From Malacoraja senta (lineage: Eukaryota): a stretch of DNA of 64,000 nt. Of this stretch, positions 13,259 through 41,448 are shown piece after piece; position 1 is the stretch's first letter, and every line of letters starts with the position of its first letter. A model generated the notes under the pieces. It was not told the origin of the DNA. It searched no databases and saw nothing but the letters and a program-made list of their open reading frames with translations. Location: positions 4,404,001 to 4,468,000 of the forward strand of contig CM075992.1 in NCBI GenBank assembly GCA_038087875.1. The letters run 5' to 3'. A program made the position numbers and the translations under genes.

Positions 13259-15478
13259 CAGGGCCGGCCTTAGGAGGTGCGGGGCCCAATTGGGAATAAT
13301 TTTGGTGAGCCCCAGGTTCCCAGCAAAGTCAAGTCAAGTTTTATTCGTCACGTGCACATAAAGTGCAGTGAAATGAATTTGCCAGCAACGGTACAATAAA
13401 AAAGAACACACAAAAACACAATCAAAATTTAACACAAACATCCACCACAGCATTCATCACTGCGGTGGAAGGCACAAAATTTGATCAGTCCTCCTCCATT
13501 TTCCCCCGTGGTCGGGACCTCAACCCTCCGCACTCGCCGCTGCGGGCGTCCAGATGTGCAGACAAGGTAAGTCCTGAATCGGTGCCTCCCCACTGGAGAC
13601 CGCGAATTCAAGATGGTGTAGGCCGCAGGCCGGCGGTCGAAGATCTAAACTCCCCGCCGCGCCGCAGCCAGAAGCACCGCAGACTGCAGGGCCGCCGGTA
13701 GGAGCTCCTCTCCAGGGATCCCCGGCGCGGGATCCCAGGCTCCGGACGCCACGCCAGCCGGAAGCACCGCAGTCCGCGGCTTCTGGATGATGTAGGCCGC
13801 GGATCAGCGGTCGGAGCTCCTCTCCAGGGATCACCGGCGATGGACCCCGCTCACGATGTTAAGTCTCCGCCGCGCCCGCGGTAGAAGTAGGCCGCGAGCC
13901 GGCGGTCGGAGCTCTACTCCCCCGGGGTCCCCAACGGGGGATCCCAGGCTCCGGTTGCCGCGCCAGCAGGATCTCCGCAGACCGCGGCTTCAGGCTGCCG
14001 CGGGCCAGCGAACGGAGCGCTCCCCTCCGGCGACCACCGGCGAGGGCTCGCCCGCTCCGCAACAAAAGATTCCTCGCTGCGCCCGCTTCTGAAGTCCCGG
14101 GCGCGTCTCCGGGAAATGCCGCACCGATCCTTTATGTTAGGCCACAGGGGAGACGACATGGAAAAAGTCGCCTCTCCGTGGAGGAGATCAAAGCGGTTTC
14201 CCCCATACCCCCCCCCCCACCCCACCCCACACCACGCCCCACACAAGACACACAGAGAAACATTAAAAACTCACATTGACACACACTTAAAAACAAAAAA
14301 GTAGAAAAAACTAACACGCTGCTGGCAGTGCTGCCGTCTCGCAGCGCCCCACCGACCTGTACCAAGGTCTGTAGAATCATAGAAATACAAATACAGTGTA
14401 TTATAGACTTTATATCTCTGTGGTAGAATGGAAAGTAATCAAATTGGGCGCTTAAAAAGTGCCTGCGAGTTAATGGACCAACAGATCGAAGCTATATTTT
14501 AATATAAAATGGCATACATGTAAGCCCACAAGTAACAAACAAAATGTGTAGATCACCTCTGAAAAGTACATAGTTACAATACCACTTGTTTTAGTGACTG
14601 TGAAATGAAAAAAAAAAACTAGATCCAGGAAAACCATTAACTATTGGCGAAAAAACAGTCCAGGCATTACATTTTGGGCTTCAGCCCCATCCTACCCTTT
14701 GGGCTTCTACCCCATCCTAAATTTTGTCGTGTGTATGTGTGTGTTAGTTGTCTGTGGGTAATGTGTGTCTGTTAGATATCTGTGCATTATGTGTGTGTGT
14801 GGGGGGGGAGGGGGAGAGAAGGGAGGGAGGGGGAGAAGGGAGGAAGCAGAGAAGAGGGTGAGGGGAGTAGAGAAAGAAGGGAAGGAGGGAAGGTGAGAAA
14901 GAAGGGAGGGAGGGAATGAGAGAAGGAAAAGAGAGAGAGGAAGGAGATAAAGAAGGGAGGGAGAGAAAGAGAGAAGGGAAGAGAGAGAGAGGAAGAAGGG
15001 AGGGAAGGAGAGAAGGGAGGGAGGGAAGAAGGGAAGGGAGGGATAGAAGGGGAGGAGAGAAGGGAAGGAGAGGGCCGGCGGCAGGAGCGGGTGCCGGGGT
15101 CCGGGCGGACGGGTGTGAGCTGAGGCCGAGGTTTGTAAACGTTGCTCCAACCCCGGCCAGGCCCTCCCTGTATTGTTCACTGCGGGAGAGAGAAGGGGCA
15201 GGGCTTTGTGCTTGAAGCACGGCGACTGGAAGGGCGGGAGTGCTGCCCCGGGACCGTGCGGGAACGACCCACCTCCCCCTTCTCCATTCCCCCTCCCACC
15301 CCCTCCCCTTCTACCCCTTTCTTCCCCTCCACACCTCTACTCTCTCTCCACCCCTCTCTCCCCCCTCCACCCGGGGTAGATCTACCTGAGCCGAGAGTAG
15401 ATTACTCTGGCGCGGGCCCCCCTTAGGCGCGGGGCCCAATTGGGAGCAATTGGTCCAATCGGCTTAAGGCCGGCCCTG
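13259..15478. mobile_element. Non-autonomous hAT-type DNA transposon
   Basis: 14-bp TIRs cagggccggcctta / taaggccggccctg; 8-bp TSD cctgaggg (13251-13258, 15479-15486); subterminal ggggcccaattggga at both ends. Confidence 0.9.
13327..14357 (-). mobile_element. GC-rich non-coding retro-element with (CTTGA)n tail nested in the hAT element
   Basis: Minus-strand aataaaacttgacttgactt tail, internal GC-rich repeats, ends similar to the element at 43890-44606. Confidence 0.6.
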
Positions 15479-16997
15479 CCTGAGGGGAGGTAAGAATCAG
15501 ATATGGTCCTGACCAGGGAAAGAATTCTACATATTAGCTTTGTGGTTACTGTTGCGGATGCTAGCAGTTCAGTCCAAATTCATCTAATAAACTGCATTTA
15601 ATTGTGGACGGAGTTAAATTCATGCCTCCATACTTAGTCGCAGCCTCTGGATTACTTGTCCAGAAATTCCCACATCTTGTAAATCAGTAAACAGAATCAT
15701 TCATCACATTGGGATCAGGAAAACTGAAACCAGTTCCAAGATCAGAAAACCATCCGATCATTGCTGACATTAGGATGTAGGAGCCTGTAAACTGTAATGT
15801 CCAGGTTTAGGAACAGCTTCTTCCCTACAATCATCAGGCTATTAACCACTAGAACCTCCACATAAGCTCCGAACTACATATACTTGGGGGCATTGGTTTT
15901 ATGTGTATGTACATATATATATATATATATATATACACAGTATACTGAATCTTTTTTTCTTGTTTATTATATTATTTACAGAGTACTATGTTTACATATT
16001 CTGTTGTGCTGCTGCAAGTAAATATTTAATTGTCTGGGACATATGACGATAAAACACGACATCTTGACAATAGACATCAGAAATAGCTGTAAGAGCCTGC
16101 CCTGCAGCAAAAGACCCAAACCCTACCTTATAGTAAAAATTGAGGCTGATCTGATTGTCACACCGCATAAAAATAGGCCATTCGTCCCAACTCATCCATG
16201 CTGACCGTGATGCCCCATCTATGCTAGCCCTAATAACTCGCATAGGTACTATCCATGTACCCGTACAACTGTATTTTAAATGTTGTTATTCTACCTGCCT
16301 CCTCTAGCAGCTCATTCCACCCTGTGTGTAAAAGTCGCCCTCTCAAGTTCCTATTAAATCTTTCCCCTCTCACCTTAAACCTGTCTTTCATTCTTGAAAA
16401 AACAAGGAACTGCAGATACTGGTTCAAATACACAAAATGACGCAAAGTGCTGGAGTAACTCAGTGGGTCAGGCAGCATCTCTGGAGAACATGGATAGGTC
16501 TTGTTTCGGGTGGGGACCCTTTTTCAACATTTTGTATCTTTTTTACCTCGGGTTCTTGATTCCACTATCCTGGGAAAAAGACTCTGTGCATTCACCCTCT
16601 CTATTTCTTGATCTTGGTAGTTCATGCTGATTTTGCCATTGACCTAATCTTTGTCCCACTCTGCATCGATATATAAATAAAATAATTTGCCTTCCACCAC
16701 TCAAAACCATCCCAAAAGAGCAATTATTTCTCATTTCAATTTAAACAGGAGATGCCTTTTCCTGCTCCCAATTTAGATTATCCAATAATGCAAAACATTA
16801 TCCCATCATTTAGTCTCTGAAAGTTGCTCAGAATCTCATGCTGCCCGGGTGCCCACCTTGCTGCCTGTGCTCAGTAGTTTGAGGTTGATATCCCCTCCAA
16901 ATGTTTCAATCGGATCTACCACCATTCTTTGTAACAATAAACCTAGGCCTAAACAGTACAACAATAATCTCTCATTATGGCAACAATTTGTACATAC

Positions 16998-17092
16998 TTC
17001 ACAATCTCTGGTACTGGAAAGGACTTTCCAACGATTCCTGAAGCATCTTTCACACGAACTTCAGTCCGCTCAACAATAACATCTTGTGGATT
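16998..17092 (-). CDS. C3: C3 exon 5 (95 bp) NPQDVIVERTEVRVKDASGIVGKSFPVPEIV(N)
   Basis: cag| acceptor, |gtatgt donor; size equals human exon 5. Confidence 0.93.
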
Positions 17093-18516
17093 CTGAAAGT
17101 AAAATTATTTGTGAAAAACAAATTGAGATTTTGATTATACAAAGTATCACATTGTAAATTAAAGTGGTGATGCACAGAATGGCGAGGCTACCAAGCTCAT
17201 TATTTTGTGGGGCCCTCTGTCAGCACAAATCTGTGCCACTCAAGGTCCAAGGCTTTCTAGGCATCTATGTCCATACAGGCCTTGCATGCCAATACAATCC
17301 TTTTGTCTCCCACCTTTCTTCATCTCTGGCCTATGTCCGACCATCTGCCTATCAAAAACGTCCCTAGCCTGTGTTCACCTTTTACTTGTCACGCTTTGTC
17401 CTCCCTCCCCCTCCCTCCCTAACTTTCTTCCTCCTCCTACTCAGTCTAAAGAAGGGTCCCGAGCTGAAAAATCACCCATCCATGTTCTCTAGGGATGCTG
17501 TCTGACCCACTGAGTTACTCCAGCACTTTGTGTCTTTTTTTTTAAAGGAAATATATGTGAGGTTTGAAAAGATGTAATCAGACAGGGACATTGAGGAATG
17601 TAAATTAAACTATTCAGGCAGACAATTAGAAGTGTTAAATTGGACAATGAAATGTCTTTGGTGAGTCCATTTAAAGGAAATCCCAAGGCTTTATAGGCAT
17701 ACTTTAACAACAAACGGTTAACCAGGGAGAAGTTATCACCACTCATGGATAAGGGGAGTCTTTATCTTTTGCTTTGAAGTCAGAGCAAAAGAATCAGGTT
17801 ACTAAAGAAGTAACCTGTCTCCATCTTGCATTAACTTGCTTGCATTCACCAAGGTGAAGGAATGAAGGACATCAATGTGCAGAATATCAATAATGGTATG
17901 GCAGTGGATATTGTCTGTATGTATTTAGTAAAGCATTTGATAAAGTCTCTAATGGCAGGCTGGACCAGCAGATGAAGATGCAGTGACTTGGTCATTTGGA
18001 TTCAGAATGAGTTTACTCCCAGAAGACAGAGGGTTGTGGTGGAAGGGTGGTATTTGGGCTGCAGGTATGTGACTAGGGGAGTTTTTCAGGGATCTAAGCT
18101 GGAATATCACGTTATTCATGATCTATATAAATGACTTGGGTGTAAAGTGTTGTGAGTTTGCAGACACCAAAATTTGTGAAATTGCAGACGGTGAAAATGG
18201 CTGTCAAAGTATACAGCACGATATAGATGAGCTACAGAAATGGCAGATGGGTTATAATCTGACTGTGCAAGGTGTTGTATTTTGGGAAACCGAATGTAAA
18301 AAGACATAAAATTAATGGCAAGTCCCTTAAAAGCATTGATATACAGAGGGATTTTGGGTTCCAAGTCCATAGCTTCCTAGAAGTGGCAAAACAAGTAGAT
18401 AGGGTGGTAAAGAAGGCATATGGTATTCATTGGTCGAGGTATTAAGTATTTGGCTGAAAACCATGTTGCAGCTTAATAGGACAATGGTTAGTCTGCAGTT
18501 GGAGTAATGTGTGCAA

Positions 18517-18925
18517 TTTTACTTCGGAGTCACCTTAGTGATTCCGTGAAGAAGACCCGTCAGGGCGCATGCACGTCATTACGTCAGTCGCATTGCCGCA
18601 CGGACAGCGGGAGGACAGAGCTCCTCCCATGGTAAGTACTTTTAGAGTAATTTTAAAGAGTTTTAAAGGTCCAGCTAAGTGAGAAACTTAGCTGGAGTAA
18701 AACAGTTTCCTTTACTGTGGTGCTGTGCTCTGTGTTTTGTCACAGGCAGCACCATGGTGAAGACGAGCAGGAGAGGACAGAGCTCCTCCTGTAGTAAGTA
18801 CTTTTAAAGTACTTTTATAGTTTTATTTTTTGTGGTGCTCTGTGTTTTTTATTACAGGCGGCACCATGATGAAGACGACCAGGGGGAGGGCAGCCGCAGG
18901 TAAAGCATAGGAGAGCCGCGGGAAA
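18517..18925 (+). mobile_element. 5' terminal fragment of a DIRS element inserted into a CR1
   Basis: ttttacttcggagtcac...gtgaagaagacccgtc matches the reverse complement of the ICR (1555-1590) and right ITR (about 1780-1820) of the DIRS at 1-1894. Confidence 0.8.
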
Positions 18926-20945
18926 GGTTTTGGAGAGGGTGCAGAGGAGGTTTACCAGAATGCTGTCTTCATCAGAGGATATTAGCTATAACAAGAGGTT
19001 GGACAAACTTGGGTTGTTTTTTCTGGAACATCAGAGGTTGAGGGAGATCTGATAGAACTGTACATATGAGACATGCTGAAAGGGTAGATAGTCAGAATCT
19101 TTTTCCCTGGGTGGAAATATCAAAGATTAGAGGACATAGATTTAAGGTGATTGGGGCAAAATGTAAAAGAGATGTGCTAGGAAAGTATATTACACACTGA
19201 AAGTGGTGGGTATCTGGAATGTGCTGCAAAGCGTGGTGGTGGCAGCAGATACGATAGGGGAATTTGAGAGGCTTTCGGATAGGCACATTAAAATGCAGAG
19301 AATGGAGGGATATGGATCAATGCAGGCAGAGGGAATAGTTTAAGGTGGCATCATGTTAGGTGCAGGCATCTTGGGCTGAATAGCCTGCTGCCGTGCTATA
19401 CTGTTCTATGTACTATATAGAACTATTGATTCACTTGTTGTGAAACAGACAACTTTATGAATTATATCTAACCCACTTGCTGGTAGATGTTTTCTTAGCA
19501 TATGGTTAGAAGCCTAGACCAAATATCTAGCTCAGATTGCAGAGGTAAATCTGTTTGGCACCAATCTTTTAACATTTTACCTCAGTAGCTACCTCAGTTT
19601 GCATTTATTTCAAGAGGACTAGAATATAAAAAACAGGGATGTAATACTGAGACTTTATAAGGCACTAGTCAGTCTTCATTTGGGGGTATTGTGAGCAGTT
19701 TTGGGGCCCATATCTGAGGAGGGATGTGCTGGCTTGGAGGGATATGTGAAGGTCCAAATGAGGTTTATGCAAATGATCCCAGGAATAATTGGGTTAACAT
19801 ATTTATGAGAGTTTGACAGCACGGGCCTGTACTTGCTGGAGTGTAGAAGGATGAGGAGGATCTCATTGAAACGTACCGAACCGTGAATGGCCTGGATAGA
19901 GTAAATGTGGAGGGAATGTTTCCACTAATGGGAAAGTCTAGGACAAGAGACCACAGCCTCGTAATAAAACAAGAGCACCTTTAGAAAGGAGATTAGGAGA
20001 AATGTCTTTAATCTGTGGTGAATCTGTGGAATTCATTGCCACAGATGGCTGTGGAGGCCAAGTCAATGGATATTTTTAAGGCAGATAGTTTCAGATTCTT
20101 GATTAGTAATGGTGTCAGGGGTTATGGGGGAAAAGGCAGAAGAATGAGGTTGAGAGGGAAAGAAAGATCAGCCATAAATTAATAGATGAGTAGACTCAAT
20201 GGACCGAATGCCCTAATTCTGCTCCGAGAACTTATGAACTGTTGGATTGGCTCACTCCTGCTGAGTCTGTTGGAAGAACAAAGATGTCACTAATATTAAG
20301 CAACTGCAAAGCAAGAATTTCATTGTCCTATCTGGGACACATGACAATAAACTCTCTTGAATCTTGAATCTTGTACAGCAAAATAAAAGGGCCTGTCAGG
20401 TGTTCACTCATTCACCAACTGTGGTGAACTAAAATGGTAAATACCAATTTGTCAGGTTTTGTTTCATTATTAATTTGTTGCTGTCTCCTAAAGTCCTCAC
20501 AGTGTGGTCCTATTTCACTGGAAGCATCTGGTTCCTCTTCTTCAGCAAGAACAATTAATGTCTAATATTGCTCTTGCTCATGATCCACATCGAATTAAAA
20601 GTCAGTATCCCCTCCCTTACAGTGCAGCCCTCCATGATTTTTGAATTAATCTAACTTTTGCCTTTTGCTCAAACCCTCTTTCAGCATGCAGCATATTATC
20701 TTTTTACTTGTCCAAATATCTTAATGCAGATCAGGCTCAGAATTAATTTGATGTCGCTACTTTAAAGACTCCAATGTTGAGATCTTGCTTAAGATGAGCT
20801 GTTCAGGGACAGTAAATGCCATTTTTCAATGCTCATTTCTCACCCCCAGTCTGGACAATACCTTGACAGTCAATGAAAAACTACAAATCTCCAAAATCTA
20901 TTGCGGTGAAATTACTTTCTTAAAACATAGAACAATGCACCTTAC

Positions 20946-21016
20946 CACAAGTTGAACTATTGTGGCTTTTTTGTTTGGCTTCATTTCATTGTCCACTGAG
21001 AGCAAGCGATAAAGCA
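20946..21016 (-). CDS. C3: C3 exon 4 (71 bp) (V)LYRLLSVDNEMKPNKKATIVQLV
   Basis: tag| acceptor, |gtaagg donor; size equals human exon 4. Confidence 0.94.
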
Positions 21017-21708
21017 CTAGAAAAAAGTAGAACACAATGATTAACCTGAACTGCAGCTTCTCACAATCGGAACAACCACATTCAGTGTCATTACCATCAC
21101 TGAGTACCTTCACATCTATATGATGGGGGGGACTCTAATGATCAAAAACTCAACTGGACCACTGCATACAATAACAAGTCAGAGACTGGGATTTCTGTGA
21201 TGAACAATGCACCTTATATCATTAAGACTGTCCACCACCTATAAAGCACAAGTCACAAATTTGATCTCTTACACAAATCTCCCCTTACCTGGATGATTAC
21301 AGTTTAATAAATCATTTGGAAATATATTTTTTCAATATCTGGGTTAAATCAACATTTATACCTGAACCAAAAGTCACTAAAACAGAGGATCTAGATGTTG
21401 TCACATTTTTGTCTGTGGACGGTTCTAACGAAATATTTGGCAACTGAGTTGGTTATAATTTTTACGGATTACTTTTCAAATCTATAATTCATTTGCTGTC
21501 GTAACATTGGAATGATGTGCTATGTAAAACAAAGTCTCTTTCTCTCTTTCTGTGATGGCCAAAATAGAAACGCTCTATTAAAATATATTTCCTCCGTGAT
21601 CTGCGTGCTTCTTCCCCCCCCCCCCCCCACCCACCCCCCCCATCCATAATCAGTGGTGTGCCCATGTACAGTGAAGGTATAATTTTAGGAACTTTGAGCC
21701 ATAGTTAC

Positions 21709-21871
21709 CAGTTTGAGTGGGTGTGTAGATTGGTTTGTCAGTCTGGATAAAGATGTGTCCTGCTTGATGTGAAACAAGGATAACAGTTTGCAACTTAAAA
21801 TTTGGTGATGATGCTTCCAAATATACATACTGGTTCCCTCTGGATTGCTTTGGCAATCTATCTGCAGGTAT
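21709..21871 (-). CDS. C3: C3 exon 3 (163 bp) IPADRLPKQSRGNQYVYLEASSPNFKLQTVILVSHQAGHIFIQTDKPIYTPTQT
   Basis: cag| acceptor, |gtaact donor; hallmark FIQTDKPIYTP motif. Confidence 0.96.
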
Positions 21872-22904
21872 CTGGCAATAACAAAGACAAAAACAAAATT
21901 GATGTGGTTGCTTTTCAGTATTGTATTCACCCCCCCCCCCCACCCACCCCACTCCACGCTATGAAGAATCCACAATGTGTAGAAATCTATCCTTGTGTCA
22001 GTAATGTTAACCATGCAACACCAACCACATATTGTGCTGCATTTTTATTGTATTTATTTGCAATGGAAGTGATTTTCAGAAACTTGACCTGACCCAAAAG
22101 TCATTATTACAGTTCGCATTTAATGCCACTAATCTGAGAATTAAGATAGACACAAAAAGCTGGAGTAACTCAGACAGCATCTGAGGAAAAATCGGTGATG
22201 TTTTGGGTCAAAACCCTTCTTCCTACCCTAAATGTCACCTATTCCTTTTCTCCAGAGATGCTCTCTGACCAGCTGGGAGTTACTCCAGCTTTTTGTGTCT
22301 ATCTTCGGTTTAAACCAGCATCTGCAGTTTATTCCTACACAATTTGAGAATTCATTTCCACTCTTCAATCCCCACCATCAAGTAGTTTGTTAATGTCCAG
22401 CGAGGCAGTATTTGGCATTAATTAGCCCGATATCAGGATTCTCACGGGTCTAGAGAGTACAGACGAGTTCAGTATTGATAAGTAAAAATCTTTCAGACTT
22501 GTAACACTAATGGAGATAACAGGTTCAGGCATGAACTGTGATCAGCAGGTATTCCCAGCCTCTTTACATTGTTTCTTGGCATTTATTTTTTCCCAACGTC
22601 ACTTTTTTTGCCTTTCTTACTGGTGAAATTCGTCAGGAGAGAGACTTAAGAGTTTGCTGCAGTGTTCTCAGCAACCATTCATGCACAAAGCAGTCTGCTC
22701 TGATATAGATGAATAGCTTAATTTTCCTGCTGCAACCATTCTGCAGACTAATCATAGGTACTAACATGAGCCTTGCAGACTGCACAAATCATTGTTGGAT
22801 AGTATCTGAGCCCCCAACTGCAGAGTACACAAGACACAGTCCTCCCAAGTTTTAAATTATTTGTCCAGATAACATTTGAATCAATAGAGACCCTGTGATG
22901 TTAA

Positions 22905-24410
22905 TGCTGCAAAATGCTGGAGTAACTCAGCGGAGAGAAGGAAGCGCTGACATTTTGGGTCGAGACCCTTCTTCAGACTGATGTCAGGGGAGTGGGCGGG
23001 ACAGAGATAGAATGTAGTCAGAGACAGTAAGACTGGTGGGAGAACTGGGAAGGGGGGAGGGAATGGAGAGAGAGGGAAAGCAAGGGCTATTTGAAGTTAG
23101 AGAAGTCAATGTTCATACCGCTGGGGTATAAGCTACCTAAGCGAAATATGAGATGCTGTTCCTCCAATTTGCACTGGGCCTCACTCTGACAATGGAGGAG
23201 GCCCAGGTCGGAAAGGTCAGATTGGGAATGGGAGGGGGAGTTAAAGTGCAGAACAACCGGGAGATCAGGTAGGTTAAGGCAGACTGAGTGAAGGTGTTCA
23301 GCGAAACGGTCACCGAACCTGCACTTGGTCTCACCGATGTATAGAAGTTGACACCTGGAACAGCGGATACAGTAGATGAGGTTGAAGGAGGTGCAAGTGA
23401 ACCTCTGCCTCACCTGCAAAGACTGATGGGTTCCGTGGATGGAGTCAAGGGGGGAGGTAAAGGGACAGGTATTGCATCTCCTGCGGTTGTAGGGGAAAGT
23501 ACCTGGGAGGCGTGATTTGGGTGGGGACGAGTTGACCAGGGAGTTGCGGTGGGAACGGCCTCTACAGAAAGCAGAAAGGGATGGAGATGGGAAGATGTGG
23601 CCAGCAGTGGAATCCCGTTGGAGGGGCGAAAGTGATAGAGGATTATATGCGGTATGCATATATTATCAGTCTGAAGAAGGGTTTTGGCCCAAAACGTTGC
23701 CTATTTCCTTCGCTCCATAGATGCTGCTGCATCCGCTGAGTTTCTCCGGCACTTTTGTCTACCTTCGATTTTCCAGCATCTGCAGTTCCTTCTTAAACAC
23801 ATATATGCTGTATGCGACGGCTGATAGGGTGGAAGGTGAGGACGAGGGGGACTGTCCTTGTTGCGAATGGGAGGAGGAGAGCAAAAGCGGAGCTGCGGGA
23901 TATCGAGGAGACCCTAGTGAGAGCCTCATCTATAATGGAAGAGGGGAACCCCTGTTTCCTTAAAATGAGGGCATCTCCGATGATCTAGTATGGAAAACCT
24001 CATCCTGGGCGCAGATGCGGAGTAGATGGAGGAATTGGGAGTAGGAGATAGAGTCTTTACAGGAAGCAGGGTGGGAAGAAGTGCAGTCTAGTTAGCTATG
24101 GGAGTCAGTTGGTTTGTAGTAGATGTCAGTCAATAGTCTGTCTCCTGTGATGGAGATGGTGAGATACAGAAATGGTAGGGAGATGGTCCATGTGAATTTG
24201 AGTGCAGAATGGAAATCAGTCGTGAAGTTGATGAAGTCAGTGAGTTCTGCATGGGTGCAGGAGGCAGCACCAGGGCAGTCGTCAATGTAGCGGAGGTAGA
24301 GTTCTGGATAGGGCCAGTGTGCGGCTGGAACAGTGATTGTTCGATGTACGCCTGATACAGTGATTGTTCGACGTTACGGCCTGGAACAGTGATTGTTCGA
24401 CGTTAAGCAT
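22905..24410 (-). mobile_element. Degenerate Penelope-like element (GIY-YIG and RT C-terminus) containing an inserted opposite-strand solo pLTR (about 23658-23800)
   Basis: ORF 23087-23659 LIYCIRCSRCQLLYIGETK; insert flanked by atatgc(g/t)gtatgc duplication; 3x ~28-bp tandem repeat at the 5' truncation. Confidence 0.88.
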
Positions 24411-24944
24411 AACTGTGATTGGAATATAGTTATATGATTTCTGTAGTGCAAAATGCAATTTTCTCACTGTTATCAACTCTGCTCTAGACTGGCACCAACT
24501 GCATGAAAGTAAATGTGAATAGAAATTGGCACTCAGGAAGATTGCCCACCTTTAACTCTACTATATTTTCAACCAATGGTAGCCATGTTCTCACTGTAGT
24601 AACGCAATTCTGGTCACTAAAGGGAAACGCACATGCTAAAATACCAGTCCCAGCCTTTACAGCAAGTGACAATTACAATCAGCACAAGGGTAACTTTTCT
24701 GCAAAGTTTATCAGCAGGTTGTGCCCATAATGTCATTATAGTGAGGAGATATTTGGCACAATAGAGAGAATTTTAGTTTTTCGTGAGTCACACCCTTGCC
24801 ACAAATTGATGAATACTTACATAGTGAAAACAGCAAAATGCAATAAATTTGGTGGCAAAATCACCCCACACTTTGCTTGTTGGAAAAACTATTGTGGAGA
24901 ACCATTGTGGAGACTGAGGCCATTCGATTTATCTGTCCATTTAC

Positions 24945-25135
24945 CTTAACAGTGGCGGCAGCTATATATTTATTCGTTGAATTCAAAGAGATATGGTATC
25001 ACATAGGCTGCGCTCACGAGCAGGAAAATCCTGCAAAGTTATAGCAACCTCGATATCAGAACGGAAATCATTGGCTTCTAGAACCACAGTTTCTTCACTT
25101 TCAATTCGCAAAACATTGGAGCTGTTAGTATAAAT
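24945..25135 (-). CDS. C3: C3 exon 2 (191 bp as assembled; two 1-bp deletions) FILTAP/NVLRIESEETVVLEANDFRSDIEVAITLQDFPARERSLCDT/HISLNSTNKYIAAATVK
   Basis: cag| acceptor, |gtaaat donor; PNVLRxESEETVVLEA motif; restoring 2 bases gives 193 bp, the human exon 2 size. Confidence 0.88.
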
Positions 25136-26329
25136 CTGTAGGAATAAATTAAAAAATGAATGTATCATCACAAACACATTAGGAATCAAGAAAACATTTT
25201 TATTCATCAACATTTTATTCATTGAGCACCATTATCAAGGCCAGTATTTTTAGATACCCTGAATTGCCCTTTGAATATAGAGGTGAACCATTTTTCTAAA
25301 CTGATGCTGTCCAGGTACATGAAAGTAACACAAGGTGTTGGGCCCTTAAATACAAAGCGATGTAAACAGTCAACATATCAAGAGTCAGGAGTATTGTTTT
25401 ATTGTCATACATCTCGAAATGGAGCAATGAAGGTCTTACTTCCAGCAGCTCAACGGATATGTAATAATACACGTGTACTTCATCTTGGGTATTTATAAAG
25501 AACAGTGCTCAACATCCTGACCCACAACATAAATGCTTAGACAAATAATTCATAGAATTCAATTTAAAGCATGCTACTGAAGCAGAACATTTTAAAAACC
25601 AGTTAATTAAATATCCAGAACAAAGATTGCAACAGTGGATGAAACTATTGAGTGCTGTCTGTGTGGAGATTGCATGTTCTTTATGGAAAGAAATCTGCCA
25701 TTTCCCACACAGTTTGGATAACTGAGTGATTCTATACCCACATTAAATACAACCAATCCTTATCTGGCCTCTATAAAGTCCTAGCCGTTCAAGGGAAGTA
25801 ATGCTTACATTGGTGGCTTGGATGAAAGACAATCGTTGTGACAAAAAGTGCTGGAATAACTCGGTGGATCATGCAGCATCACTGGGGAGCATGGATAGGC
25901 TACATTTCTGTTTTCTACATTCTTACTGAATGCAGTAAGGGGGAGAAAGCTGGAAGAGAGGTGATTGTGGGACACTGGCAAGTAATAGGTAGATGTAGGT
26001 GAGAGACCGTTTTTGATTTGTAGGTAATTGGACAAAGGCCAGAGATGAAAAGACAAAAAGTGTGAGATAACGATAGAAAAGTCCTAAGAGTGAAGCCAGA
26101 GGAAGGAATATAGATGGAAGGGGACATGGAGTGGATAAAGAGAGAAATGGGTGCGCGTTGAGGTAGGGCACAGAGAAGGATGGGGAAAAAGTATGTGGGG
26201 GGGAATGTTTGTCGGTCGGTCACCTAAAATTGGAGAATTCAATGTTCCTTGTATCTGCAGTCATTTCTAACTCCCATTCCTAGTTGCCCTGGAGAAGATG
26301 GGAATGCAATAGCATTGTAGGGAATGTCA

Positions 26330-26668
26330 ATCATAGAGAGGAATTTCCAGAATTTAAATTCATTGACAGTGAGGAAATGGAGATATATGCAATGGCTAGA
26401 TTACTATGCTACTCGGAGAGGGCTTTATATTTTGTGGTCTTGCCATGGGCGAACCACTGTGTACGGTAGTAAATGTCCCATGTGGTTATTGTCAACCTTG
26501 ATGACTGCATCAACTTGGATGATAAAATGTTCCTCTGAGCGAGGGCTATATGTATATATGTATGTAGTTTGTTTGTTTATATTATTCTTATAACAAATGT
26601 AAAGCACTTTGGCCAACAAGAGTTGTTTTTTAAATGTGCTATATTAATAAATGTGACTTGACTTGACT
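26330..26668 (+). mobile_element. L2-type LINE 3' end
   Basis: tgtaaagcactttgg...aaatgtgctatattaataaatg(tgact)n terminal signature. Confidence 0.55.
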
Positions 26669-29541
26669 AATGTTTCTCAAGTGTAATTGGAGTTGAATTT
26701 CACCAGGCAAGTAGATGGCATTCCATCGCACACATTGCTCATCTCTTTTGACAGTATAAAGGCCCTGGAGTCAGAAGACGAATCAGAATTAGTGGTCGGA
26801 ACAGTGACGCAGTCGGTAGAACTACTACCTCACAGCACCAATTTACTATGTGGAGTTTGCATGTTCTCCCTGTGGGTTTTCTCCCACGTTCCAAAGACGT
26901 ATGGGCTTGTAGGTTAATTAGCCTCCATAAATTACCCCCAATGTATAAGGAGTGGATGCGAAGCGGAATGACATAGAACTATAGTGAATGGGTGATTGAT
27001 GGTCATCATGGATGTGGTCGGCTAAAACATCTGGTTCCATGCTGTATCGTTCGATTAATCAATCAAATTCACAAGAGTTGGGTGGCCATTAATGCAAAAT
27101 TGAGCTCCCAAATGCCAGAGATATTGCAAAATAGTAAATTGAGGCCACAGGTTTGGGGAAGAATTACAAATTCATCACCAAGCAAACAATGCAATTTTAC
27201 TCGGTTTTACTGACAACTTCTGCATGGTGGTGCTGGAGATGGTAACTGGGCAAACGGAAGTGAATCTAATCCCAAACAAAAGCCCCATTCATACACTGTC
27301 AGTAAGGAAGTTGCAACTAACAGTGGTCTCATATGTTGACAGTGAGACAGACCCACATTGAGGTGATGAGACACCAACAGTCCTTGTTACTCCCACCTTC
27401 AATCATCCAACACAATCTCTCTACAGCAGAGGTAGAATCATGAGAAAAAATCTTTAATCAATGCGAAACGTAAAAAGGAACATATCACCAAAGCTTTACA
27501 CAAAATGCCACCACACATTTTGCATTTCCAATTTGACTATTAAGCTAAAGAATGGATTATTCTTCTCTTTAAACTGTTATTATCCAATGGAAAACAGTGC
27601 AATTTTAAAAAATGTTCATGGAAAAGAGATTTCGGTCACCATGGTCCAATCCTAAAATTGCAGGTTATCGGGTTACCGGTGTACCAGAAATCCGTGGCCA
27701 TTTGGGAATATCCTAGAAAGCACTGCATTAAATTTGATCTGGGGAAGATACTGCATCACACATTGTTAAAGCTGCATTTCTGTAAGATATTCTATCAAAA
27801 ATTTACAAAAATAGTTAATTGCAATGGCATTATTTCATCTCCTTATCTGTGATTAGCTACCAGCCTGCTCGGAATCAGTGACCTAAACAGTTGAGGGAAG
27901 ACCTGATAATGTATAAAATTATGAGAAGAATTAATGTGGTTGACAGTGAGAACCTTTTTCCCAGGGTGCAAATGTTCAACACTAGAGGGCATAACTATAA
28001 GGGGAGTGGGGGAAAGTTTAATAGATATGAAAATAACTCTGGGCAAGTTATTTTCACAGAGGATAGTGGGGGTGTTGCGAGAGGTGGTGGTGGGGGCAGA
28101 TATGTTAGTGGCATTTATAAAGTTTTCTAAATAGTCACATGGAAGTGCAGGGAATAGAGGGATAATAGATATATCACGTGCACGCAGATGGGATCAGTTC
28201 AGCTAGGCATCATGTTTGGCACGAACATGGGCAAAAGGGCCAGTTCCTGTCCTATACTCTTCGACTTTCTATACAGACACAATGAAATCTGTGCATACTC
28301 AAATAATGGATGAAAACATAAATCATACAGAAATTACACAACAATAGCAAAGTGATTGTTTAGTATTCAGCCTTAGTTGGAATAAAATGTTAGTGGAGAT
28401 CTTTGGTTTGAACACAAGGGAATAAAAGCTGTGTTGAATGCACAACAATTGCATGGAGTAGTTGGAATACGGTGTAGCAAAGTGTGGAGTCATGCATTTT
28501 AGTAGTTGGAATAAAGGCATGGACTGAATGGAGGGAGAATTCTGAAATTGGAGGTGAAAAGGGACTTGGGAGTGCTGGTGCAGGATTCCCAAGTCGATTC
28601 GGTAGTAAGGAAAGCAAATGCAATGATAGCATTTATTTTGAAAAGCATTTATATAAAAACAGGGATGAAATTCTGAGGCTTTATAAGGCACACTGGTTAG
28701 ACCACAGTTGGAGTATTGTGCGCAGTTTTGAGCTCCATATTTGAGGAAGGATGTGCTTGAGTTGGAGAGGTTCCAAAGGACGTTTATGAGAATGATCCCA
28801 GGAATGAGTGGGTTAATATATGATGAGCTTTTGAAGGCACTGGACCCGTAATCACTGGAGTGTAGAAGGATGAGGGGTGACCTCATTGAAACTTCCCGAA
28901 TAGTGAAAGGAGAGAGTGGAAGTGGAGAGGATGTTTCTACTAGTGGAATGTCTAGAATGTCCCTCAGAATAAAAGGGCTTACCTTTAAAAGAAGCTGAGG
29001 TGAAATTTCTTTAGTCAGAGGATGGTGAATTAATGGAATTCATTGTCACAGAAGGCTGTGGAGGCCGGTCAATGGATATTTTTTAAGGCAGAGATTGATA
29101 GATTGCTGATTAGTACAGGTGTCAGGGGATATGGGGAGAAGGCAGGAGAATGGAGTGAGAGGGAAAGATAGGTCAGCCTGAATTGAATGGCAGAGTAGGC
29201 TTGATGGGATGAATGGCCCAATTCTGCTACTATAACTTATGAGCTGATGAACAAATGGCAGCATCAATGAGTCAGAGTTTCAAAATCCCAAAGAGAAAAG
29301 TCTTTATCCATTTTCATGGTACCTATTCCTTACTGTACTTGTGATGCAGCTTGCAGCCTGTGCTATACTGTGAGAATACATCTTTATCCTTAGGTTAAGA
29401 CCAGTGCAATGGCACAGCTGGTAGAGACCCAGATCCAATCCTGATCTTGGCTGCTGTATGGTGTTTGCATTCCCTGTGACTGCATGGGTTTCCAACAGGC
29501 GCTCTGCTTTCCTCCCACATCTCAAAGATGTGTGGTTTGTA

Positions 29542-29741
29542 NNNNNNNNNNNNNNNNNNNNNNNNNNNNNNNNNNNNNNNNNNNNNNNNNNNNNNNNNNN
29601 NNNNNNNNNNNNNNNNNNNNNNNNNNNNNNNNNNNNNNNNNNNNNNNNNNNNNNNNNNNNNNNNNNNNNNNNNNNNNNNNNNNNNNNNNNNNNNNNNNNN
29701 NNNNNNNNNNNNNNNNNNNNNNNNNNNNNNNNNNNNNNNNN
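29542..29741. other. Assembly gap (200 N)
   Basis: Run of exactly 200 N; truncates a V-SINE on the left and a Helitron unit on the right. Confidence 1.
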
Positions 29742-32700
29742 GGTGTAAATGCATTGTGAGGTCAGCGGGGCGGGGCCAGCAGGCAGGTTGGGGGGGCGGG
29801 GCTGGGTGGGGCCAGCAGGCAGTTGGGCCAGGTGCAAAGGCATCGTGAGGTCAGCAGCTGGGCAACCTTAATATTTTTTTAAAATGTCAGTTTGGTTATA
29901 AATATTAGTAAATATCTCGGGAAATAATTGACCAAATGTATAGAGGATTGGATTTTTGAAATCATAAGGAAACTTCTACCAGAAGATGTAAAAATTGAAC
30001 TGTTATCGTAACGTCAGCAGCTGGGCAGCGGTGGCATGAGATGGCACTGTGACTCATGCAGCAGTTTGATTTAGTGGGACCACGTGAAGGTTGCAATCTC
30101 CCACCCCTGTCCCATTGTGATGTCATTTCATATGTAAATGAGATCCATTGTGATTGGACATCTGTGAGGTGGCACTGTGACTCATGCAGCAGTTTGATTT
30201 AATTTTTTTTTGATGTTTTGTGAATAATTTTATTCAAAATCTGGGGAAATAATTGACCAAATATAGAGAGGATTTCTGAAATCATAAGTTAAATCACTAC
30301 CGAATTATGTAAAAGTCTCCGCGTTTTTTGCGTCTGGTTTTCGAGAAAATACGTTTCAAAGGCAAAATGACACTCACCCACAGAGTTTTAAAACTATACT
30401 AGACCAAGTGCAGACACGTTGGGGTCTGTTCCCCCAATGCGTGTTTGCGGGGGGGGGGCGGCTTGCGGCGTCACACACACTAACTAAGGGGGTGGTGGGA
30501 AGGGGGTAGGGGAGGGGGTTTAGGAGAGGGGGAAGGGGGTTTTAGATTAGGGGATGGGGGAGGGCAGGGGGAGAGGAAGGGGGAGAGAGAGGGGGAGAGA
30601 GGGAGGGGGAAGAGAGAGAGGGAGGGGAAGAGAGAGAGGGAGGGGGGAGAGAGCGAGGGGAAAGAGAGAGGGGAGGGAGAGAGAGAGAGGGGGGAGAGAG
30701 AGAGACGAGTGCAGCGGGCGGCAGGTCACGGGGACTCGAGCGAGGCACGGAGCGATCCGAGGAGCAAAGATTCTATAGCACGCTATAGGCTCTTTGCTGA
30801 GCTGCCAAAAGGGGATGGTCCCCTGTGACTGGGTAGAGGGGGAGAGGGAGGGAGGTGAGAAGAGGAGGGGGGGAGTGGAGGAGAGCCGGGCGGCAGCAGC
30901 CGTTATCGTCGCGCGGGGCACGCGATGACAAGGTGCCCTGGCGGCCATTACTCCCTCTGGATCTTTGGTCCGCAGCACAGCGGGAGGCGAAAAAATGAAT
31001 GGGGGGGGGAGGGGGAAGGGTGGTGAAAGTGCGCCTATGCATTGAGAGCATCTGCTTTAATCGAGAGCGGGGAGGGGGGGCGGTGCCGCGAGCAAGGGCA
31101 TTGTGACTTCCGCAGCTGCTGCTGCGGTTTGATTTTTTTTTAAACAGTCCGTTTTGTGAACAACTTTATTAAACATCTGGGGAAATGTGGGGGGAAGGGA
31201 GGGGGTGAGAGGGGGTTATGGATGGGAGGTGTGAGGGGGGGAGAGGGGGAGTTGTTACCGAACTGAACTCACTCTGGAATGAATCCATTAACGGAGACAC
31301 TCTGCTGCTGGATTTTAAGTTGTCCCTGCCTTCCCTCTGGAAGACTCCTCGTCCCATCAGATGCCGAGTTCCCACAGCCCTGGTTAAACGCGGGGGCCGC
31401 TCACGGTTAAGTCTGTGAAAGCGGCCCCATCAGAGACTGTGAGCAGCAGCAGGGTTCACTATAGGATGGACCATTGCGCCTATCGTAGCGGGTGGCTGCT
31501 TGTTCCCTCACACCCCGGCCTTTACCCCACCCGCCCGTCGCCTTATCTCTTCTCCCCTGAAGCAGTTCAGTCGGGCACAGCTGCCAGAAGCTGAAAACTA
31601 AATATTGCAGCGGGAAAACTGCGGCTGCGGTTCTGGCAACAGCCGCCGTTCTGCTCTGTCTGGGGGAGAAGGCGAGTGGGGGTGAAGGGGGTGGGGGGGG
31701 GGGAGGAAGCGGATAAATGTGAGGTTATCCACTTTGGTAGCAAAAACAGGAAAGTAGACTATTATCTGAATGGTGGCCGATTAGGAAAAGGGGAGATGCA
31801 ACAAGACCTGGGTGTCATGGTACACCAGTCATTGAAAGTAGGCATGCAGGTGCAGCAGGCAGTGAGGAAAGCAAATGGTATGTTAGCATTCATAGCAAAA
31901 GGATTTGAGTAAGAGCAGGGAGGTTCTACTGCAGTTGTACAGGGTCTTGGTGAGACCACACCTGGAGTATTGCGTACAGTTTTGGTCTCCTAATCTGAGG
32001 AAAGACATTCTTGCCATAGAGGGAGTACAGAGAAGGTTCACCAGACTGATTCCTGGGATGGCGGGACTTTCATATGAAGAAAGACTGGATAGACTCGGCT
32101 TGTACACGCTAGAATTTAGAAGATTGAGGGGGGATCTTATAGAAACTTACAAAATTCTTAAGAGGTTGGACAGGCTAGATGCAGGAAGATTATTCCCGAT
32201 GTTGGGGAAGTCCAGAACTAGGGTCACAGTTTAAGGATAAGAGGGAAGTCTTTTAGGACCGAGATGAGAAAATCATTTTTTACACAGAGAGTGGTGAATC
32301 TGCGGAATTCTCTGCCACAGAAGGTAGTTGAGGCCAGTTCATTGGCGAGGGAGTTAGATGTGGCCCTTGTGGCTAAAGGGATCAGGGGGTATGGAGAGAA
32401 GGGAGGGATGGGATACTGAGTTGGATGATCAGCCATGATCATATTGAATGGCGGTGCAGGCTCGAATGGCCTACTCCTGCACCTATTTTCTATGTTTCTA
32501 TGAAGGGGAGGATGGGGGAGAGAGGTGAAGTGGGGGGGGAGGGTTGGAGTGAGTGGGCGGGAGTCCAGCTGCGGGAGGCGTGGCATGAGCGTACTTGGAT
32601 GCATACTGGAGGCAGGTGGGCTGGATTGGTCGGCATGTGCGCATTGTGACATCAGCAGCTGCTGATTTAAAGAAAACAGTAAGTTTTGTGAAGGGTTTTA

Positions 32701-33794
32701 TTGAAAATGTGTATAGAAAAATGACCAAAATTAATGAGGAGTGGATATGCGAATGTAAAAGAAAAATCGCTAGCGAAATGGTAAAAATCAAAATGACATA
32801 CACCCACACACACACAGAGTTTTTAAAGTATACTAGACCAAGTGCAGACCCATTGGGTCTGGCCCACGAACGTGCTTCAGACCCCAGGGTGTGGTTCCCG
32901 AACGTGCTTCAGCGTCTTGACAGTGTAGACAGAGGACGGAGAAAAGCAGAGGGGGAAGAGCCGATGTTTGGCTTGAGCCAGGTGTGAGAGAGCCGGCCGG
33001 GGGGGGGGGGGGGTGGAGGGGTAGTGGAGGAGAGAAGGTCGGCAGTTGCGAAAATCGCCAGCGAAAGAAAAAAAATGTCGGCATTTTTGGAGCAGAGCCG
33101 GGCGGCAGCAGCCGTTATGGTGGCTGGCCAGCAGGAGGCGACAAAATGAGTGAGTGGGGGGGGGGATGTATTTTATTTTAAAATGTGTACATAAAAATGT
33201 CCAAATCTAATGTGTTAGGGTATGTAAAAGTGTAATGTCTAGCGAAATGGAAAAATCTCGGAGTTTTCGCGTGTGGTTTTTGGCGGAGCAAGAAATCAAA
33301 GGCCAAATTTGACACCCACAAACTCCCACACACACACACACAGAGTTTAATAGTATACTAGACCAAGTGCAGACCCGTTGGGTCTGGTCCCCGAAAGTGC
33401 TTCACACCCCGGGGTGTTGTTCCCGAACGTGATTCAGGACCCCGGGGTGAAGTTGCGGAAAAAAGATGGCGTAGGTGTCGGAAAAAATCGGATAAAATCG
33501 GCGAGAAAAAGATGGCGTCGTTTTCGGAGAAAATCGGCGAAAAAAGATGGCGTCGTTTTCGGAGGAAATCGGAGAAATCGAGTGGGGGGGGATGGATTTT
33601 ATTTTAAAAAACGTGTACATAAACACGACCGAATGTAATCAGGAGTGGCTAATCGTAAAGATAAATGTCATCTCTTTGGAAATGGTAAAAAAATATGGGC
33701 CTTTCCGCGTGCTGTGTGGGCCAGGGGCGGTATCAAAGGGATTTGGTGGCAGACGGAAGTCAGGCGGACACAAGTCAGGCAGCCACAGAGTTTT
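29742..33794 (-). mobile_element. Head-to-tail array of at least 4 non-autonomous Helitron-like units (29742-30398, 30399-32832, 32833-33357, 33358-~33794)
   Basis: The three unit ends visible outside the gap read on the minus strand hairpin CAGACCC-NNN-GGGTCTG + CACTTGGT + CTAG|T (CTAG at 30399, 32833, 33358); all units share a 5' region starting TATA(C/G)T..AAAACTCTGTG. Confidence 0.8.
31709..32500 (+). mobile_element. Young CR1 3' fragment nested in Helitron unit 2
   Basis: DKCEVIHFG...[19 protein letters not shown]...[14 protein letters not shown]; (tatgtttc) tail. Confidence 0.9.
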
Positions 33795-33842
33795 AGAGAG
33801 AGAGATAGAGAGAGAGAGATAGAGAGAGAGATAGAGATAGAG

Positions 33843-33877
<35 letters not shown>

Positions 33878-33945
33878 TATAGAGAGAGAGAGATAGAGAG
33901 AGAGATAGAGAGATAGAGAGAGATAGATAGAGAGAGATAGATAGA

Positions 33946-34024
<79 letters not shown>

Positions 34025-34030
34025 GGAGAA
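33795..34030. repeat. (GA)n/(GATA)n compound microsatellite
   Basis: Directly visible; further (GA)n tracts at 35981-36046 and 37985-38238. Confidence 0.98.
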
Positions 34031-35976
34031 TCCAACAGAATGCAGGATTTCCTTAACAAACACAACATTCTCAGTAAAAAACAAATTGGCTTCCTCCCAA
34101 AACATCGTACCACTGACCACATTTACACCCTCCACACTCTCATTGAAAACATGTACACCAAGCAAAAAATGGAAAAATATTTGCCTGTTTTATTGACTTT
34201 GAGAAAGCATTTGACTCTATTTGGCATGAAGGGCTCTACTACAAACTCCTCTGTTGTGGTATAGGAGAAAGGTATATGACCTTATCAAATCAATGTATCT
34301 GAATAATAAATGTGGCGTTAAAATTGGGGAGGCGTCCGGCAAGGCTGCAATCTGAGCCCGACACTGTTTAATTTATATATCAACGATTTGGCAATAAAGC
34401 TGGACCAGAGCACTGCGCCGGGCCTCTGTCTCCTGGACGGAGAGGTAAAATCTCTGTTTTATGCGGATGACTTGGTTCTGCTGTCCCCCACAGGGACTGC
34501 AGCAACAGTTGGACCTACTTGATGAGTACTGCCAAAATTGGGCCCTGGCAGTAAATCTAAAGAAAATCAATATCATGATTTTCCAGACAAAACCCAGATG
34601 TCAGGAAGATAAATACAAATTTACTCTCAATGGTATTATTATCGAACACACTATGAGCTATACTTACCTTGGTCTGTTGCAGCATCAGGGAGCTTCAATA
34701 TGGCAGTGAATGCACTAAAAGAGAAAGCTCGAAGAGCTCTGTATGCAATAAAAAGAAGATTCTACAACATCCAAATTCCCATTAAAATCTGGCTTAAAAT
34801 ATTTGACAGTGTAATCCAGCCTATTGCGGTTTATGGTAGTGAAGTATGGGGGCCGGTCAGTCACCATAGTTATAGTAAATGGGAAAAACATACAACGGAG
34901 GCCCTGCATGCGGAATTTTGTCGGAACATCCTCCGCATCCAAAGGAAAACACCAACAAACGCATGTAGGGCAGAATTAGGCAGATACCCACTGATAATAA
35001 ATATCCAGAAAAGAGCACTACATTTTTGGAATCACCTTAAATCTAGCCCACCAGATACCCTCCAGTTTAAATCCCATAAAACACAAGAGGGGAGCCCAGA
35101 AAAGAGTTCCCTGTGTCAGTTGGTACGGAGACTAACTACCCCCATTCAGTTAAACCCTATCCAGTTAAATCCTGACCAGCCTCAGATCAATACTTATCCC
35201 CAATCACCAGTTAGAGTGAACCAAATTATCAAACAATGTAAGAAACATATTTGGAACATTGGGATAAAGAAACCAAAAGCCAAAGCAGATTAGAATGCTA
35301 CCGTGCCCTAAAAAGAGATTATAAATTGGCAGACTATCTCTCAACTGTTAGAGACATAAAACAGAGACAGACCCTCACCAAATACAGGCTAAGTGACCAC
35401 TATTTGGCAGTTGAAAAAGGAAGACAGAAGAGATTCTGGCAACCAAGAGAAAACAGAATATGTGGCCACTGTTTGACAGATGAGGTTGAAACAGAGGTGC
35501 ACTTCCTCCTAAAATGCAATAAATTTGACAAAACAAGGAAAACATACTTTGACAAACTCAGTCAGGCAACCCCTGACTTTAAGGAACTCGATGATACATC
35601 GAAACTAAGAATAATCCTTGGTGAAGGAAATACGGCACATCTTGGTGCACAATACGTAACAGCATGCCATAACCTGAGAGACGGTGAATGACCAATATGC
35701 ACATATGTACGCACACACTAATTGACATTAACTGACACTAAGAAATTAATATTGAATTGCTAAATTAGCTATCCTGTTGTACTGATTACAGCTACAAGAA
35801 CGTGTAGCAATCAATAAAAGGCTATAGGCCTCTTGCGAGTTTATGTACAGGGACATATCTATCTATGCACTGTATACTTGTATTTATAATTATGCATCTT
35901 AAATATGTATGTCATGTTTCATACTTTGGCAATATAACAATGTCTTTTGTATCATGCCAATAAAGTTTTTAAATTG

Positions 35977-35980: not shown

Positions 35981-38242
<2,262 letters not shown>

Positions 38243-38925: not shown

Positions 38926-41448
38926 TTTCACAGGGGGAGCTCTGTGATGAACAGCCTTAGGGAGGAGGACGGCTCGGTAACATCCTTGCAGACGGATATG
39001 CTGAGGATCTGCAAATTCTTTTGCACGGATTTGTATGACAAAAAGGCCACAGACAGCACCGCCTCCCAGAACTTCCTGTCCTCTATCACGGAGGTCTTGG
39101 AGGACAGCAAGCGGGAGAGTCTGGACCAACCACTGACCCTAGAGGAGCTGACTGGCTCCATTCCTTTGACTCGAGTAAAAATCCCGGAAGCGATGGCTTA
39201 CCGGCCGAGTTGTATTCGGCTCTGTGGGACTGGGTGAGCCCGGACCTGCTGGAAGTGTACAACGACATGCTTCTAGCCGGCAGCATGTCAGACTCGATGA
39301 GGAAGGGCAGCATCACCCTAATCTACAAGCAGAAGGGGGAGCTGAAGGACATAAAGAATTGGAGACCCATAACACTGCTGAATGTAGATTATAAGATCCT
39401 GTCTAAGGCCATCGCCAACCGGGTCAAGTCTGCTCTGGGACAGGTGATCCAACCGGACCAAACCTGTGCTGTACCTGGCAGGAAAATCTCAGACAGCCTA
39501 GCGCTGCTGAGAGACACCATCGCCTACATGCAGGACAGACGGGTGGATGCCTGCCTAGTCAGCTTGGACCAGGAGAAGACCTTCGACAGGATATCGCACA
39601 CGTACATGAGGGACGTGCTCTCCAAAATGGGTTTTGGGGAGGGAATCCAAAATTGGATCAAACTGCTCTACACCAATATCCGTAGTGCAGTCCAAATCAA
39701 TGGGTGGGAATCAGACAGTTTCCCTGTAAGGTCTGGAGTCAGGCAGGGGTGCTCTCTCTCTCCTGTCTTGTTTGTCTGCTGTATTGAACCTTTTGCCGAG
39801 TCCATCAGGAAGGATGTGAGCATAAGAGGAGTGACATTGCCAGGCAGTGGGGGCATTCAAGTCAAAGCCTCCCTGTACATGGACGATGTCGCTGTCTTCT
39901 GCTCGGATCCAGGGTCGGTCCGCAGATTGATCAGTATCTGTGACCAGTTTGAGTCGGCCACCGGAGCCAGGGTGAACCGCAGGAATAGCGAGGCCATGCT
40001 CTTTGGCAACTGGCCCGACCGAACTTCTGTCCCCTTCACCATCAAGCCTGACTTCTTGAAGGTGCTGGGGATCTGGTTCGGGGGGGCTGAGGCGTGTAAC
40101 AAGAATTGGCTGGAGCGGATAGTCAAGGTGGGGAAAAAGCTGGAGCTGTGGAAGCAACGCTCCCTCTCCATAACCGGAAAAAATTTGGTCATCAGGTGTG
40201 AGGTGCTCTCGGGGCTGCTGTACTTGGCGCAAGTGTGGCCTGTCCCTCCCTCCTACACCACAGGGATCACCCGGGCCTTCTTCCAGTTCATCTGGGGGTT
40301 GAGGATAGACCGGGTGCGACTGGCCACAATGTACAAGTCAGCAGACAACGGGGGTAAAAGCGTGCCCAACGTCGCCCTAACCCTGATGGCCACCTTTGTG
40401 TGTGGCTGCATCAGGCGGAGTGTAGAACCAAGGCACGTGGGCACCAAGTGTCACTACCTGCTGAGGTTCTACCTGTCCCCGGTGTTGCGAAGGATGGGCC
40501 TGGCGCAGATGCCACGCAATATGCCAGTCAGCTGGACATTGCCGCCCATCTGACGTCTGTGGAAAGGTTCTTCCGGACCAACACCTTTGACCACATGTCC
40601 ATTGGGCAGTGGTCAGCACGGAATGTCCTGCAGGCAAAGGACTCGATGGATCCGGTGGCGTAGTTCCCAGAGCAGACTGCCCAGCTTGTCTGGCAAAATG
40701 CCTCATCGCCAGAACTCACCAACAAGCACCAAGACCTGGTATGGCTGGCGGTGAGGGGAGCCCTCCCAGTCAGATCCTTCCTGCACCGTCGGAACCTCAC
40801 TACCAGCGCACGCTGCCCTCGGGACGGCTGCTATGGCGAGGAGGCGGTTGCCCACCTCTTTGCAGAGTGTGGATTTGCAAAAAGAGTCTGGAGAAGTATG
40901 CAAGGGTCCCTGGAACGCTTTATCCCGAACAGCTCCGTCACAGAGGACTCTGTGATTTACGGACTGTTCCCAGGGACACATTCAGAGACTGACATCGAGT
41001 GCTGCTGGAGGGTCATCAACTTGGTGAAAGATGCTCTTTGGTCTGCCCGAGCATTGTTCACCACCCAGCAGAGCGAGATGTCGGTCAGGGAATGTTGCCG
41101 ACTTGCCCGCTGCAGACTGCAGTACGTGCTGAGGGACGCACTGAAGCTTGGTGCAGCCAACGCCAAGGCTCGGTGGGGGAGGGCCACAGTCTAGGGTCCT
41201 TCCGCTGCTGGACATGGGGGGCACAGTATGGTGGAGACGCCCCTCAAAATAAGGGAAGGTATCCCACGCCAGGGGGCCACATGAGTGGCACGGGTGGGGG
41301 ACAGTCTGGAATTGGAAAAAATGTATTAACTGCATTGAACAATTTGTATAGCCTCCGAAAATGTCGGATGAATGTTTCGCACGGTTCACGTATTGTATAT
41401 ATTTATTACTTGAATAAAGTCTATTTTGAAATTTAAATTTTTTTTTAA
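38926..41448 (+). mobile_element. Tx1/L1-clade LINE, 5'-truncated ORF2 (RT + zinc knuckle), inserted into a CR1 tail
   Basis: NWRPITLLNVDYKILSK, GVRQGCSLSP, YMDD, RCPRDGC...EAVAHLFAEC; frameshifts at about 39160 and 40545, stop at about 40661; TSD aatgatggt(g/a)caga at 38912-38925 / 41449-41462. Confidence 0.9.

Follow-up and report, generated by a model that had tools for sequence, protein, structure and literature searches.

The window (the whole 64-kb stretch of DNA that was analysed) contains, on its minus strand, a head-to-tail train of different non-autonomous Helitrons (Table 1). As reported in the earlier note, the train has three junctions (CTAG at 33358, 32833 and 30399), each of the form CTAG|TATA(C/G)T, where the bar marks the joint; a 19-nt terminus is matched three times in the window as compared to 0.05 matches expected from shuffled sequences, and AAACTCTGTG is found near the start of all four units. 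The units are also alike in their last 30–80 nt and in a subterminal block of about 90–108 nt (68–74% identity; the block itself holds up, the 150 bp first given for it does not), and the rest differs. Four units are indeed present, the fourth without its 3' end: because it runs into a gap of 200 N, the outer 3' boundary of the train and its empty site are hidden. The lengths had been put at 525 bp to 2.4 kb, which is right for units 2 and 3 and too long at the lower end (unit 1), and unit 3 reaches its length with a LINE-like insert, which, judging by its protein motifs, may be CR1-like; many loci match this insert (positions 331–1122 of unit 3), at up to 93% identity. The hairpin described before each junction is found in units 1 and 2 (folding z ~ −1.9, weak by itself), and that of unit 3 has one extra C and one mismatch and does not fold as a terminal hairpin.

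Table 1. Features of the window (strand and positions as in the window)
Feature	Position	Strand	Remarks
Tyrosine-recombinase frame, 337 aa	382–1395	+	PF00589 and PF13495
Reverse-transcriptase frame	2394–3851	-	weak GIY-YIG match, Penelope-like
Assembly gap, 200 N	29542–29741		hides the end of the train
Unit 4, 5' part, 657 nt	29742–30398	-	head without TCTA; cut by the assembly gap
Unit 3, 2434 nt	30399–32832	-	5' type TGTGTG; head without TCTA; degenerate 3' hairpin
LINE-like 3' fragment, ~790 nt	31711–32502	+	high-copy; nested antisense in unit 3
Unit 2, 525 nt	32833–33357	-	5' type TGTGTG; starts TATACTAT-TAAA
3' hairpin of unit 2	32845–32861	-	7-bp stem; ends 8 nt before CTAG
Unit 1, non-autonomous Helitron, ~438 nt	33358–33795	-	5' type TGGCTG; ends with hairpin and CTAG
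3' hairpin of unit 1	33370–33386	-	7-bp stem, 3-nt loop; 8 nt before CTAG
Head microsatellite (TCTC/TCTA)n, 235 nt	33795–34029	-	leads into TAAAA of unit 1
Paired frame, first	34613–35293	+	
Paired frame, second	36628–37701	+	
Reverse-transcriptase frame	39039–40553	+	

Other frames of the window are included in Table 1. The tyrosine-recombinase frame presumably belongs to a DIRS-like or Crypton-like element. The paired frames start 2015 nt apart and have identical translations over ~215 aa, which points to a duplication, either a recent local one or one introduced by the assembly. When sequencing reads were compared with the train, none of 21 runs contained half of its words; four runs were aligned on part of the train (the head and the flanks were outside this part) and gave short multi-copy pieces, with almost no coverage from the raw-read run; neither an insertion event nor a presence/absence polymorphism showed up among these pieces.

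Relatives of units 1, 2 and 4 are found elsewhere with different neighbours, and for the first two units there are solo relatives as well. The relatives of unit 1 (87–92% identity) have many different neighbours, and those of unit 4, which is of the TGTGTG type, are 1.3–1.9 kb long. A unit 1-like copy is followed by a unit 2-like copy at three of 24 loci, with junction letters differing from those of the window. Solo relatives of unit 2 begin with A|TCTATATACTAT-TAAAA (L143, L152 and L155 start with TCTATATACT after A), and unit 2 in the train lacks their TCTA.

A search of the 1.94-Gb genome gave 5800 exact matches to the 3' end and none to the reversed pattern used as control. Among 132 of these 3' ends (73 loci from the first 100 matches, contig C1), 131 are followed by T. 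One common host repeat, which matches the target motif described below, took 127 insertions at one position (L181–L250), a hot spot that serves as a ready empty site. At 17 of 46 loci this repeat is cleanly split between A and T by an insert TC...CTAG without any duplication (at the remaining loci the head was not found within ~7 kb, lies behind a long microsatellite, or the flank is altered), and the unsplit form occurs 13 times among the sampled loci. Copies at split repeats have 5'-TC after A, and window units 2–4 are without the first four bases; 85 of 102 called heads follow A (heads being called by their TC). Where the empty site is known, intact single copies carry heads of 10–17 nt (one of 28 nt) that start with TC. 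The 5'-TC, the hairpin with CTAG-3' and the A|T insertion without duplication bear out the assignment to Helitrons made in the earlier note, as does the autonomous partner that its checks called for.

Open frames of 1364–1766 aa were identified between a TGGCTG-type head (the 5' type of unit 1) and the 3' end that the units have. They carry PF14214 (Rep; 112 matches in the genome) and PF05970 (PIF1) and match Helraiser with E 8e-210, with the HUH-type and Y-x-x-K-Y motifs aligned. Judged by sequence, the elements are canonical Helitron1 (HLE1) with an autonomous partner whose activity is predicted. Like Helraiser/Helibat1 (HLE1, PDB 7lcc), they have 5'-TC, a hairpin, CTAG-3' and duplication-free A|T insertion. 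Membership in the Helentrons or Helitron2 (HLE2, DINE-1-like) was rejected on the A|T insertion and on the Pfam search, which gave no endonuclease domain; as far as the accessible text of PMC11417382 goes, HLE2 is characterised by subterminal inverted repeats, T|T insertion and an endonuclease domain. No inverted pairs were found in a search for pairs of at least 25 nt. We note that most autonomous copies contain an internal hairpin-CTAG about 1.0–1.6 kb before the apparent final 3' end, followed by A instead of T (L124:8224, L125, L127–L130), which is likely a fixed record of end bypass. Autonomous copies also sit in mixed trains, and on four small contigs of this genome (C4526, C3619, C4719 and C2570 of G000) such trains of autonomous and non-autonomous copies extend over 10–30 kb, with more TC-retaining junctions than elsewhere.

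Trains are common across the genome. A tabulation of how often a 3' end abuts the 5' end of another copy gave 2995 of the 5800 exact 3' ends with a 5'-end motif within 5–14 nt (reversed-pattern controls, 0), and with type-specific motifs 73 of 132 ends abut a head (73 loci, first 39 Mb of contig C1), i.e. about half of the family's copies are arranged head to tail. All 21 multi-copy clusters in the contig C1 sample are on the same strand; maize Helitrons, too, have been reported to cluster in one orientation. Two pairs of trains are near-identical (L057/L058 and L271/L272). As L271 and L272 share their downstream flank, they are segmental or haplotype duplicates; transposition of whole trains, for which this one pair was tested, was rejected on the same observation.

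The junctions follow a simple rule. Intact heads read TCTATATACT..TAAAA and junctions read CTAG|TATACT..TAAAA. Among 188 distinct junctions, 145 have the (T)AAAA motif at offset 7–8 after CTAG (18 could not be placed); a TC start is seen in 14 of the 188 and in none of the three window junctions, and TCTA follows 391 of the 5800 ends genome-wide. In non-element host flanks, TAAA lies at offset 7–8 in 53 of 87 cases (103 non-junction ends minus 10 degenerate elements and 6 internal ends) as compared to 1670 of 101189 (1.7%) background AT sites, and TAAAACT is found in 7 of these 53 targets versus 25 of the 1670 background sites, a ten-fold enrichment. Because host targets share this spacing (A|T-N6/7-TAAA), the element's own 5' end, TCTA|TATACTTT-TAAAA, which holds the motif four bases in, is an ideal target. 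The proposal of a TATA-rich target at the 5' end is thereby sharpened: the 5' end is hit, at a site 7–8 nt before TAAA (TCTA|T in the 12-nt head), and this site matches the motif of ordinary host targets. Where an old-type head is 10 nt long, this offset would place the cut behind TC, at C|T; heads of 12 nt are found in that type as well.

We consider it highly probable that the window train consists of four different non-autonomous Helitrons joined by serial insertion, each four bases inside the preceding 5' end, and both the form and the frequency of the junctions support repeated insertion into the 5' ends of earlier copies, as first suggested. The same serial insertion could be guided by the short motif alone, with survival of harmless insertions and no recognition of the end, an explanation that also has serial insertion at its centre and departs from the first solely in how the transposase is brought to its target. 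By a matrix built from the host flanks, one head weighs 2,000–12,000 times the average site, and the host repeat with its 127 insertions carries the motif. The matrix predicts 0.6–8.5% self-insertion with the empirical background versus ~52% observed (10–26% with a cruder normalisation; both predictions assume 10,000–30,000 heads). Under the empirical normalisation the motif by itself thus falls well short of the observed rate, and selection strong enough to close the gap seems unlikely in a repeat-rich 1.9-Gb genome; we regard guidance by the motif alone as unlikely.

Rolling-circle read-through, in which the stop hairpin is missed and tandem copies integrate in one event as a concatemer, is the account of bat and silkworm arrays given in the available text of PMC4067079, and Helraiser, according to the part of PMC4778049 at hand, forms precise CTAG|TC circles. 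In the present family a full TC head is retained at some junctions, chiefly those of young arrays, runs of similar 450–470-nt units at 93–97% identity are found, and the autonomous element has its internal, bypassed 3' end. However, CTAG|TC is predicted at the junctions and found in just the 14 of 188 given above, several of them at offset 8. Identical neighbours are also predicted, whereas 11 of 59 adjacent pairs have similar lengths and neighbours are mostly of different types or not closest relatives: in 24 short adjacent pairs, the upstream unit has a closer relative at another locus in 20, the neighbour is at least as close in 3, and 1 had no comparison. Nor does read-through give a reason for the age polarity of the trains. 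It fails already for mixed trains such as that of the window, whose units differ and whose junctions all lack TC, and we reject a rolling-circle concatemer there, in line with the earlier reading that simple read-through is not involved. For the TC-retaining minority of junctions, which may be read-through, and for some homogeneous runs it is possible; as the general explanation we find it distinctly improbable.

Trains tend to run from young to old, starting from the head. Median divergence is 3.3% for the TGGCTG, 8.1% for the TGTGTG and 14.4% for the ATCTTG head type. Of 50 adjacent pairs, 34 have the less diverged unit upstream (p=0.015), as do 22 of 32 unselected pairs (p=0.05); within one type the polarity is not significant (21 of 32 pairs, p=0.11). 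By type, younger-before-older pairs number 35 and the reverse 6 (automatic calling; a few trains overlap). New-type 3' ends are followed by old-type heads at 477 junctions and old-type 3' ends by young-type heads at 16 of ~551, a ratio that overstates the polarity because the 477 include old-type elements with new-type 3' ends. In the window, one TGGCTG type is followed by three TGTGTG types, an order consistent with young-to-old polarity; the best-hit identities of the four units (89–93%) give no age order.

The same data bear on insertion at G|T just after an older 3' end, a model proposed for a maize pair (PMC2267711, as far as its accessible text goes), and on spread by unequal crossing-over or segmental duplication. 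Behind a few old 3' ends there is indeed a full young head, and duplicated trains with shared flanks exist, as noted for L271/L272. However, under the G|T model the TC heads should be complete and older units should precede younger ones, the reverse of what is seen, and duplication cannot join units of different types at a single fixed offset. Both are refuted as the main route by the absence of TCTA and by the polarity, and we consider them extremely improbable. At L275:3762, L054:3752, L162 and L274:5397, young TCTA-headed copies directly follow older 3' ends that have A or T in place of the terminal G, as though the original target had been used again once A was restored before T.

Runs of (TCTA)n are found at the heads of trains. 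For young-type heads, head length correlates with the number of units (rho 0.69, p=0.002, n=18 unselected; 0.60, n=43 pooled); over all unselected heads the correlation is not significant (rho 0.18, p=0.25, n=44). Train heads are longer than four bases per unit, which requires a further contribution from slippage or inherited heads, and some solo copies have long heads; on both grounds a simple counter with one TCTA per unit was rejected. In some head microsatellites (L274:3879, L285:1632, L288:5206) the repeat run is divided into blocks that have TCT as their last letters, which might mark separate insertion events or inherited heads.

With serial insertion as the preferred reading, the train could have formed as follows, the insertion order being read from the sequence. 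The RepHel transposase would nick its target at a fixed distance from TAAA, which would make an existing head a near-perfect target. Insertion into that head would leave TCTA upstream and decapitate the older copy, which would lose its 5'-TC and give the junction CTAG|TATACT. The incoming copy would bring a fresh head, the target for the next round, so the train would grow at its 5' side with the youngest copy first. A (TCTA)n run would accumulate at the head, and slippage as well as heads carried over from donors would probably make it longer. Because the motif predicts 0.6–8.5% of insertions instead of 52%, wider left-end recruitment or a survival bias is needed; binding of the transposase to the wider 5' end, as in donor recognition, likely recruits the incoming copy. 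In general form, we tentatively propose, as one possibility that we do not favour over its opposite, that the transposase recognises TAAAACT in targets just as it does at the left end of its own element, and places its cut at a measured distance from the motif. The 5' end would then be a landing pad that renews itself, receives half of all insertions, decapitates older copies, records the order of insertion and seeds (TCTA)n/(GATA)n, and many published 'read-through' arrays may share this origin.

Directly adjacent Helitrons are already published. Unrelated Helitrons lie next to each other in maize and bat (accessible parts of PMC2267711 and PMC4067079). The maize pair was read as consecutive insertions of unknown order with a CTAG|TC junction; it is one case, whereas the present family has thousands of junctions, most without the first bases and polar in age. 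In Fusarium, one FoHeli4 was inserted 2 bp from the 5' end of another, and a three-copy tandem was left open between 5'-end insertion and rolling-circle replication; these are isolated cases of non-canonical elements, for which the text seen of PMC5148889 describes no target-motif rule or polarity. Head-to-tail arrays like those described here are cited for bat, for silkworm and for the centromeres of plants (PMC5876387 and PMC4067079), and the passages available explain them by missed termination or by circular intermediates. Helraiser, too, favours AT-rich sequence 3' of its insertions (PMC4778049); in contrast to our family, no fixed TAAA spacing or self-targeting is described for it in the portion of text accessible, and its head-to-tail junctions keep TC. 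The accessible text of PMC13286980, PMC13085455 and PMC4224331 contains nothing on self-targeting at the 5' end, and full-text searches, with subscription papers mostly outside, yielded no fixed-offset self-target, polarity or TCTA seeding. The fixed offset gives the growth of mixed arrays a precise rule, one that is probably undescribed.

The origin of Helitron tandem arrays, by run-on replication or by repeated insertion, is open in the literature as far as accessible, and serial self-insertion offers a testable alternative to the run-on account. The target of Helitrons is usually given as an AT dinucleotide only; here a base-exact rule emerges over thousands of junctions. If the proposal is true, structure-based finders should be used with caution, as about half of the copies would lack the 5'-TC that they require, and the family would illustrate both a strategy of harmless landing built from the transposon's own end and a way in which a common tetranucleotide microsatellite can arise.
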